Source: an uncultured archaeon
Lineage (GTDB): Archaea; Asgardarchaeota; Heimdallarchaeia; Heimdallarchaeales; Kariarchaeaceae
NCBI GenBank assembly: GCA_964645535.1
Contig: CAZYCQ010000023.1
Location: 1 to 45,408 of the forward strand
DNA length: 45,408 bases
Reading direction: 5' to 3'
Every line of letters starts with the position of its first letter. The first letter of the stretch is position 1. Made by a program: the position numbers and the translations under genes. The notes under the pieces were generated by a model, which saw only the letters and a list, made by a program, of their open reading frames with translations, was not told the origin of the DNA and did not search any database. Positions 19,946-21,889 of this stretch are shown here, piece by piece.

Positions 19946-21889
19946 TCACACCTTACGTTTTCTTCTTATGTTTGTTGATACAACAATGAGGAAGAATGAA
20001 ACAACGACCATTGAAAGGCTGAAGGGAACAGAGGAGGTTCCAGTACCTTGTTGAGTGCCATTTACGGTGATAGTCGTCGTGGTGGTAGTTATTGGTCCAG
20101 GGACTGTTGATGTGACATTGGTCGTAGTTGTTACGACTTGAGTGACAGTCGCTGTTGTATCGATTAGGTTCATGGTATGAACCAGTATTCCGACAGGTCG
20201 ATAGAGGACTCCAAAATCTGCGGTCACATTAATGGTCACAGGACTATCGAGAGGAAGATTCGTGAAGAAGTAATAACCAGGCATTGAAGAATCTTCTTTA
20301 GCCACATAAGTCGAGGACGGTCGAGTATCCATTGTCAGTGTTACATTTGCATTGGAAAGCGGATTGCCATACTCATCTGAGACAAAGTACGTCAGGTTCA
20401 TTGTTCCTGAAGCTTCATTGATGGCCTGATCGTAAAGATCCACATCAGTTTGTGGAAGAGGTACGGGGATTGGAGTAGGTACAGGGATGAAGACAGGCAC
20501 GGGAACAGGTACTGGAATGAATACCGGTATGATGATGATCCACAGGGGAATGAAGACGATAATCTTCTTAACAACCTTGACGATTATCTTAAATATCCAT
20601 ACATTGATGGTGATTGAGATATTGATGACGAGGATGTCTATATCGATATGAATTATGGTAATCTCAATAAGTGTTATTTGTAGGATTTCAATCACGATAA
20701 CGATATATTGTATGTACACCTCAATCTTGATGACCTCATAAACGACAATCACCATTACAAGCTCAATGACCTCCAAATAGATGATGATGGATATTTCATA
20801 GATGGAGATATGTACTTCCCATACTTCAAAAAGAATAACGATGGGGATGTAAATGCCACCCAAAGTTTCATAATTGATGACAAGTTTATCTAGGTATAGA
20901 TTGAGTGAGAACCCACCATATATTATGGTAATGGATTCAACGGCAAGAATTACATCCAATACATCGAATGGAATGGTCGGATCATCCACACTGATTGGAG
21001 ATGGATATCTGAGAGGAAGAGGACTCAATCCCGGCTCTATACCTTGAAGATCTGTTATACCACTTGTGATATTCGAATATTCAATGAATGATCCAGATGC
21101 TTCATTTGAACTTCCTTTGATCCTGTGATCCTGCTGATTTCCAGATTGAATTAAATTCAGCGGAATATCGAAGAAGCTGTTGGAATTTTTTGAATCAGTT
21201 CCCGTCGTAATGTTTGGTGCAAACAGATCTCCTCCATTGTCGTTTCTCAGTCTGAGTGTTGTGTTTGTGGGATTGAATGCAGGGCCGACCAGATCCAATT
21301 CCACAACTTCTGTTGGAATGGCGGAATCCGTGGCAGAAATTGAAGCTCCAAAATGGGTAGCGTTTCTTGCAATCATGGTTTTGAATGTTTTCATGGAAAT
21401 TCCATCGTCAGAATATCCTTTGATCTCCGCCACTGAAGGAGTTGTATTGTCAAAGCTCTGAACAGAGAGCATTTCCCAACTTTGCATTACTCTTTCTGTG
21501 GATATGTCAATGAATTCATACTTGATAGAGGTTCCAGTTGCCGGAGCCTCGTCCATGAAAGGATCGGGATATGAATCCAATGCCACCTGTTGAGTGATGG
21601 TTATTCTTGTAAAGTTGGCACTATCGGCACTCTCCCAAAATTCTATGACAGAAAGTCCTGTTGAGGCATTTATTGTAATAATTGCACCATCAGAGAATGT
21701 CAGTCGAGTGAAATTTCCAATTACTTCAATGTCCACAGAGGAACCGTCCTCAAAAACGATTTGCTGTGTTGAAGATTGAGCGACGGCAGGGTCAGGGAAA
21801 GCAGCAAGGTTGGCTGCATTCATGTTGCTCCCCACCAATATCATGACCAAGGTGAAACTTAGTATTGTTCTGAAAATGATTCTTTTCAT
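19946..21889 (-). CDS. Surface protein with an Ile/Val-rich beta segment, (VP)n stretch, Ig-like domain, Thr-rich linker and PGF-CTERM-like anchor
   Basis: 647 aa with a signal peptide. Residues ~306-480 are dominated by I/V. SDEYGNPLSNANVTLT is an Ig-like motif. The C-terminus reads TTTTTT...VPFS-TM-RRKRKV. Confidence 0.85.
   Translation of the reverse strand: MKRIIFRTILSFTLVMILVGSNMNAANLAAFPDPAVAQSSTQQIVFEDGSSVDIEVIGNFTRLTFSDGAIITINASTGLSVIEFWESADSANFTRITITQQVALDSYPDPFMDEAPATGTSIKYEFIDISTERVMQSWEMLSVQSFDNTTPSVAEIKGYSDDGISMKTFKTMIARNATHFGASISATDSAIPTEVVELDLVGPAFNPTNTTLRLRNDNGGDLFAPNITTGTDSKNSNSFFDIPLNLIQSGNQQDHRIKGSSNEASGSFIEYSNITSGITDLQGIEPGLSPLPLRYPSPISVDDPTIPFDVLDVILAVESITIIYGGFSLNLYLDKLVINYETLGGIYIPIVILFEVWEVHISIYEISIIIYLEVIELVMVIVVYEVIKIEVYIQYIVIVIEILQITLIEITIIHIDIDILVINISITINVWIFKIIVKVVKKIIVFIPLWIIIIPVFIPVPVPVPVFIPVPTPIPVPLPQTDVDLYDQAINEASGTMNLTYFVSDEYGNPLSNANVTLTMDTRPSSTYVAKEDSSMPGYYFFTNLPLDSPVTINVTADFGVLYRPVGILVHTMNLIDTTATVTQVVTTTTNVTSTVPGPITTTTTTITVNGTQQGTGTSSVPFSLSMVVVSFFLIVVSTNIRRKRKV

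Follow-up and report, generated by a model that had tools for sequence, protein, structure and literature searches.

An Ile/Val-rich segment free of Gly and Ala in a predicted surface protein of an Asgard archaeon

The gene and its surroundings

The window analysed here is a whole stretch of 45,408 nucleotides, contig CAZYCQ010000023.1 of an uncultured Asgard archaeon of the Kariarchaeaceae. A minus-strand gene near its middle encodes P0001, a predicted surface protein with the parts listed in Table 1. The predicted signal peptide is probably cleaved, and the beta-meander that follows it contains eight N-x-S/T sequons. The best-kept element of this otherwise variable N-domain is a DSFFD motif (about residues 236–242, in the region of 21196–21170 of the window), which is present twice in P0010 and in P0007. 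The Ig-like domain matched complement C5 MG4 in shape (Z 10.7, rmsd 2.7 Å, 99 residues), and also SlaB of Sulfolobus (Z 9.1). The Thr-rich linker beyond it is probably a glycosylated spacer. In the related proteins P0052 (locus L040) and P0054 (L042), Cys-rich spacers (CPACPEC, ECQECEECEEC) stand in place of this linker, just before the C-terminal helix. These spacers could cross-link chains or bind metal, and would fit an oligomer.

Table 1. Features of the P0001 gene, in positions of the window
Feature	Residues	Position	Strand	Basis
Whole gene P0001, C-terminally anchored, predicted exported surface protein	1–647	19946..21889	-	translation; open frames intact in orthologues
Predicted signal peptide, basic N-terminus and hydrophobic helix	1–30	21800..21889	-	sequence; model helix 2–28; KD window 1.69
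Variable N-terminal beta-meander, ~20 antiparallel strands, one face polar	40–295	21005..21772	-	AF2 pLDDT mostly 57–82
Lead-in hairpins, four strands, ordinary Gly/Asn/Asp turns, one face 97% hydrophobic	311–345	20855..20959	-	AF2 model
Ile/Val-rich, Gly/Ala-free segment, 11 modelled short strands, best-conserved domain	346–455	20525..20854	-	counts, AF2, alignment
Core motif KIEVY	388–392	20714..20728	-	family alignment
Pro-rich tract, extended and of low confidence in the model	456–479	20453..20524	-	alignment, AF2
Ig-like (macroglobulin/Big-type) domain	480–573	20171..20452	-	pLDDT 93–96; shape matches
Thr-rich linker	575–622	20024..20167	-	sequence; low pLDDT
C-terminal transmembrane helix and basic tail, CTERM-like anchor	625–647	19949..20017	-	model helix 625–644; same tail type family-wide

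Three minus-strand genes with overlapping stop and start codons lie downstream (11508–19640, 4936–11511 and 1955–4939) and encode very large proteins, all predicted to be exported: an FG-GAP propeller protein of 2710 amino acids, a TSP3-repeat protein of 2191, and a probable beta-helix protein of 994 with a Lys-rich tail. The TSP3-repeat protein matched the NCBIfam models CglD (E 1.9e-50) and MtsD, both under the cut-off. Orthologues or paralogues of the FG-GAP protein were found in all five of the same-family genomes tested. A preliminary description of this DNA had suggested that P0001 might be the structural fibre of the cluster, which its distribution does not bear out. The gene adjoins the FG-GAP giant here and at locus L006, but not in genomes G001, G002 or G007 or at the loci of other families, where it lies between other genes. 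Genomes G003 and G008 have FG-GAP giants too, and the P0001 family was found in neither; this query found no such giants in four carriers of the family.

On the other side of the gene, a winged-helix gene and an EamA transporter (22019–23778, minus strand) lie upstream in the window and at L006 and L078, and the winged-helix gene also at L024; this order is local synteny among the closest relatives. In a large clade of the family (family f7; L077:5567–9898 and L017–L019), the gene lies between saccharopine dehydrogenase-like and D-serine dehydratase/alanine racemase-like genes, which looks like positional synteny.

Composition and conservation of the central segment

The 110 residues from IYIPIVILFE to FIPLWIIIIP (minus strand, 20854–20525) contain 41 Ile, 18 Val, 9 Glu, 5 Lys, 2 Asp and 2 Asn, with no Gly and no Ala, and are directly followed by the VP tract. 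The counts of Ile, Val, Gly and Ala given in the preliminary description were exact, although its interval of 20450–20974 takes in about 40 residues upstream as well. Its placement of the segment, after a beta-rich N-domain and before an Ig-like domain, agrees with the AF2 models and shape comparisons. The central 98 residues have neither Pro nor Gly.

This composition is the most extreme of its kind in the genome. The best 80-residue window of P0001 has 45 Ile and Val, while the mode for the 3,377 stop-to-stop ORFs of the genome is 16 and the runners-up have 35, in a frame antisense to the TSP3-repeat gene, and 32. There are 265 ORFs with a hydrophobic window of 110 residues, and among these the segment has the highest KD value (1.89), an Ile and Val fraction of 0.55 (mean 0.22, sd 0.04), and the lowest fractions of both Gly plus Ala (0, mean 0.146) and Leu (0.055, mean 0.172). 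Its Ile codons are mixed (22 ATC, 11 ATT, 8 ATA), so the bias is not that of a DNA repeat. Second in Ile and Val among the likely real proteins of the genome is an ORF of 318 amino acids on contig C74 of G000 (10724–11677, minus strand), which ends in tandem repeats of nine residues (IGIERVIDQ).

The family of P0001 was assembled from orthologues in three genomes, two from its own genus and one from its own family, and an iterated profile then gave 39 database proteins as well as full-length matches in further Asgard families; 52 proteins were aligned. A profile of the segment by itself matched 17 of 400 Asgard genomes, from five families, in a single copy each except in G090, the only one of the 17 with two paralogues (contigs C14 and C61; L061 and L073). 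The family was not found in the closed 4.4 Mb genome G134, which belongs to the distant family f19, or in viral contigs, or outside Asgard, where the genomes were scanned with two short patterns only. Two long matches of a search with the N-domain, P0009 and P0011, were repeat artefacts. The orthologue P0003 (L078:3160–5084) was called as two overlapping ORFs of 207 and 434 amino acids, probably through a frameshift in the N-domain; its segment is intact. Contigs from two hot-spring runs matched the gene at 99% or more, none of them across its whole length, and the best of these runs could be the source sample itself.

All full-length members have the same order of domains: signal peptide, beta-meander, segment, Pro tract, Ig domain and C-terminal anchor. 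Within the close group, mean identity was 71% in the Pro tract, 64% in the segment, 52% in the Ig domain and 30% in the N-domain. Synonymous differences were equally common in every region, at about 0.6 of identical residues, so selection on the segment acts on the protein. The segment is thus intact in the orthologues, where the preliminary description would have taken its absence as a sign of an artefact, and it is their best-conserved domain. Every one of the 52 members has a run of 68–140 residues without Gly or Pro. Across the family the segment is 33% Ile, 11% Val and 22% Phe, Tyr or Trp, with 2.0% Gln, 1.2% Asn and 0.5% Gly, and its core is about 75% hydrophobic.

Four distant members, probably from the Lokiarchaeia, have much of the Ile and Val replaced by Trp and Tyr – by sequence, one class of beta-formers has been swapped for another. 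These four were admitted on full-length HMM matches (E 2e-16 to 5e-10, before they joined the profile), on architecture and on the core motif; a profile-profile comparison with the close group was weak (E 0.004, probability 8%).

In the core motif, residues 388 and 390 carry opposite charges in all 52 members, as K-x-E in 15 and E-x-K in 37, and the swap of orientation is a single event on the tree; Tyr392 is invariant. This K/E pair and the Tyr, rather than a charge gradient, are what the family keeps. It had been proposed that a Glu-to-Lys gradient along the segment sets the register of its strands. The N-terminal half is acidic throughout the family, but the C-terminal half is neutral or basic, with a Lys cluster, in only a few close orthologues and is acidic in the large clade, which is net acidic in both halves. 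The (VP)n motif is present in P0001 as described, as one variant of a general family tract with Pro at roughly every fourth residue.

Searches of Pfam, NCBIfam and PDB sequences returned no significant family for these proteins. Pfam gave no family for 37 segment sequences, with E values allowed up to 1, the segment profile had no match among PDB sequences, and no description of the family was found in the literature searched. The central domain is undescribed in these libraries and this literature; the chassis that carries it is that of an ordinary archaeal surface protein.

Modelled structure and possible assemblies

With 52 sequences, AF2 modelled residues 311–453 as 15 short antiparallel strands and no helix, at a pLDDT of 91–97 over residues 310–399 and 57–81 over 400–449 (five models, means 76–84). 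With nine sequences, residues 353–476 were left unfolded (pLDDT ~23). The strands modelled between 311 and 402 are 5–8 residues long. The preliminary description had judged the segment too long and too beta-branched for transmembrane helices, and the confident model, which has no helix there, upholds the beta reading. The closest shapes are single-layer meanders: the TCP domain of SAS-4/CPAP, variants of OspA, and MORN repeats. Foldseek searches of the PDB and BFVD returned nothing at E <= 0.001, and an Atlas query gave no usable feature match and no TM over 0.5.

Averaged over the family, the two faces of the modelled strands are 0.95 and 0.64 hydrophobic in the segment, compared with 0.54 and 0.27 in the N-domain, and for the strand at 377–383 the values are 0.99 and 0.98. 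Acidic residues favour turns (0.18, versus 0.05 in strands), and the aromatic fraction is 0.22 in strands and 0.21 in turns. Gly, Asn and Asp together make up 0.26–0.55 of the modelled turns at 316–346 and 0–0.13 of those from residue 372 on, which are occupied by Ile, Tyr, Glu and Thr; the loss of turn residues from 372 on is a caveat on a literal reading of the monomer model.

The family-averaged spectrum has its main peak at 160 degrees and a second at 40 degrees, with little power at 100 degrees, which is a strand-plus-turn period of about nine residues. In single sequences, the periodicity beat that of shuffles in just 5 of the 52 members. A heptad (3/7) reading of a peak at 155 degrees was dropped, given the family peaks at 160 and 40. 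A covariation test did not discriminate between antiparallel (0.051) and parallel (0.050) pairing, so the strand topology is that of the AF2 model; mean-field DCA and mutual information with 52 sequences (Neff ~40) were noisy and held no topology signal.

A sheet that is hydrophobic on both faces, in contrast to the hydrated TCP sheet, is not expected to remain open to water. It should be buried, and the simplest burial is against its own copies. We therefore consider it about an even call that the segment homo-oligomerises into a surface-anchored beta shaft, with P0001 exported and anchored to the outside of a single membrane through one Ig domain, the Thr-rich linker and the C-terminal helix. 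The run of short strands at residues 311–455, with one face almost wholly hydrophobic, would come together from a few chains (three is a guess) that bury these faces mutually and form a rigid shaft. The N-terminal, distal strands would retain true hairpins, and the C-terminal two thirds, with turns that lack Gly, Asn and Asp, would probably swap or wind round neighbouring chains towards the membrane, by analogy with the change from antiparallel to intertwined strands in the T4 gp5 spike. The conserved K/E pair and Tyr may set the register and the Pro tract may terminate the sheet. Such a shaft would raise the variable, probably glycosylated N-terminal meander off the cell. The outer face of the shaft, which is partly greasy, could drive bundling or adhesion. 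An oligomeric beta-stalk had been suggested in the preliminary description and is still the best reading. Composition, conservation and the order of domains are observed and the strands are modelled; export, the oligomer, its intertwining and an adhesive role go beyond these and are inferred. A homo-trimer prediction of residues 300–578 gave no answer (score 0.01) and speaks neither for nor against it.

The second face of the sheet is far greasier than the exterior of a soluble spike should be, and a small closed oligomer leaves this in part unexplained. One unlikely alternative is an open-ended laminate or functional amyloid, in which sheets packed face to back, or chains in register, would build rows, rings or cross-beta fibres on the outside of the cell, as a non-crystalline coat or cell-cell glue. 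Hydrophobicity on both faces and a composition dominated by beta-branched and aromatic residues would suit this, the K/E pair two residues apart might neutralise itself in an in-register stack, and the model resembles the single-layer sheets of OspA, which have been used to mimic self-assembly (Z 10.4; PMC3776556). Stacking at 4.8 Å would be hindered, however, by the bulky N-domain, Ig domain and membrane anchor of every full-length member, and secretion or nucleator genes are not conserved among the neighbours at the loci examined. Functional amyloids of the curli type are built from imperfect repeats rich in Gln, Asn and Gly, and with 2% Gln, 1% Asn and 0.5% Gly the segment is not curli-like. 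Somewhat less likely again is a lipid-engaging device, in which the sheet would curl or oligomerise into a barrel or groove. This would bind to, or insert into, a partner cell's membrane or some other hydrophobic surface. Such a device would account for the most hydrophobic 110-residue window of the genome, for charges placed at strand ends and for the abundance of Trp and Tyr in some distant members. Yet the strands in the confident part of the model, at 5–8 residues, are short for a bilayer, and aromatics are not enriched at turns and so form no girdle; barrel proteins do occur among the shape matches of the N-domain, but mostly at an rmsd of 6–16 Å, which reflects generic meanders. It is possible, if doubtful, that the segment belongs to a class of surface beta-structure that structural biology has not met before. 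Free of Gly and with two greasy faces, the sheet would then polymerise, as a laminate or in cross-beta form, or else engage foreign membranes.

Burial within a single chain seems improbable. In that case the N-terminal meander, folded back, and the Pro tract, stretched along the sheet, would cover the greasy faces. The top shape match is a domain that binds a Pro-rich motif (the prolines of STIL on the TCP of CPAP), and the Pro tract is as well conserved as the segment; but both sides of the TCP sheet are hydrated (PMC3776556), the N-domain varies in length and sequence and is much more polar, and 24 residues of Pro tract are too small for two faces of 11–15 strands and are undocked in both models (pLDDT under 50 in parts). 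A multi-pass helical membrane domain, or an artefact of assembly or frame, is effectively refuted. Windows of 19 residues reach KD values of 2.3–2.5, equal to those of the true C-terminal helix, but the contents of Gly plus Ala and of Leu are the lowest of the hydrophobic windows, neither model has a helix in the segment, and periodicity at 100 degrees is absent. Against an artefact stands the intact, best-conserved segment in homologues from many independent samples.

Imaging of Asgard cells has shown a single membrane with numerous surface structures and without an ordered S-layer, and the surface structures are thought to support cell-cell contacts relevant to eukaryogenesis (PMC9834061, PMC12993045). 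The P0001 family adds a concrete, mostly single-copy surface candidate with a searchable profile, although it is patchy among Asgard genomes and its function is putative. A predicted exported stretch of 100 residues, about 75% hydrophobic and free of Gly and Ala, that occurs across distant Asgard families must solve a problem of export and folding, and from its structure one would learn how an all-beta shaft or laminate can do without the normal turn residues. If the polymerising or membrane-engaging reading were true, some Asgard archaea would have a coat other than an S-layer, or a device to grip partners.

Comparison with known systems

The chassis of P0001 is shared with archaeal CTERM-anchored glycoproteins (PGF-CTERM, Heimdall-CTERM and SlaB), which have a signal peptide, an Ig-like domain, a Thr-rich linker and a helix with a basic tail. 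We know of no archaeal surface glycoprotein of this type with such a segment. CTERM models scored under the cut-off (Heimdall-CTERM 14.3 bits versus 24), only one member, P0013, has a PGF motif at its C-terminus, and the sortase PF09721 was not found in genome G000 (89% complete).

Alveolins and articulins (IMCp) share the vocabulary of Val, Ile, Glu, Lys and Pro with the segment, and the preliminary description had linked them through the VPVPV motif. The heptad of alveolins is EKIVEVP, and in models they form beta-ribbons that depend on a partner chain (PMC12465100). However, they belong to the cortical cytoskeleton and have Pro in each repeat, whereas the 98-residue core of the segment is free of Pro, has a period of about nine rather than seven and no Pfam match, and is flanked by a signal peptide and an anchor, as a predicted exported protein would be. 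The likeness is at most a convergence of composition.

The nearest shape is the TCP domain (G-box) of SAS-4/CPAP (PDB 4by2/4bxp; Z 11.6, rmsd 2.4 Å, 128 residues, 12% identity), likewise a single-layer antiparallel meander of short strands with an associated Pro-rich stretch. That domain is centriolar, has both faces hydrated and no hydrophobic core, and turns through type I turns (PMC3776556). The sheet of P0001 differs in its predicted export, its two hydrophobic faces, its Gly-free turns and the lack of any sequence match, and the likeness is a shape analogy only. OspA of Borrelia has a free-standing single-layer meander like that of P0001 (rmsd 4.2 Å at the Z given above; MORN-type sheets, Z ~9) and is also a surface-anchored protein. 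Single-layer sheets of the OspA and MORN types are polar and soluble, and no sequence similarity between them and the segment was found.

The model for how the proposed shaft would work comes from the central spikes of phages (T4 gp5, phi92, phiKZ) and the Orsay virus fibre. In T4 gp5 an antiparallel sheet passes into an intertwined helix with a VxGxxxxx repeat (PMC4576200), and the strands of the Orsay beta-bracelet are Val-rich (PMC7565637). The N-domain of P0001 has weak shape matches to the spikes of phiKZ (Z 7.0) and phi92 (Z 6.9). Unlike these systems, the P0001 family has neither the VxGxxxxx repeat, at 0.5% Gly, nor the loop motif of the bracelet, and P0001 would be anchored to a cell through an Ig domain and a helix, with a greasy outer face. 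What its putative oligomer would have in common with them is the principle of an oligomeric beta shaft, in which the chains share both hydrogen bonds and core.
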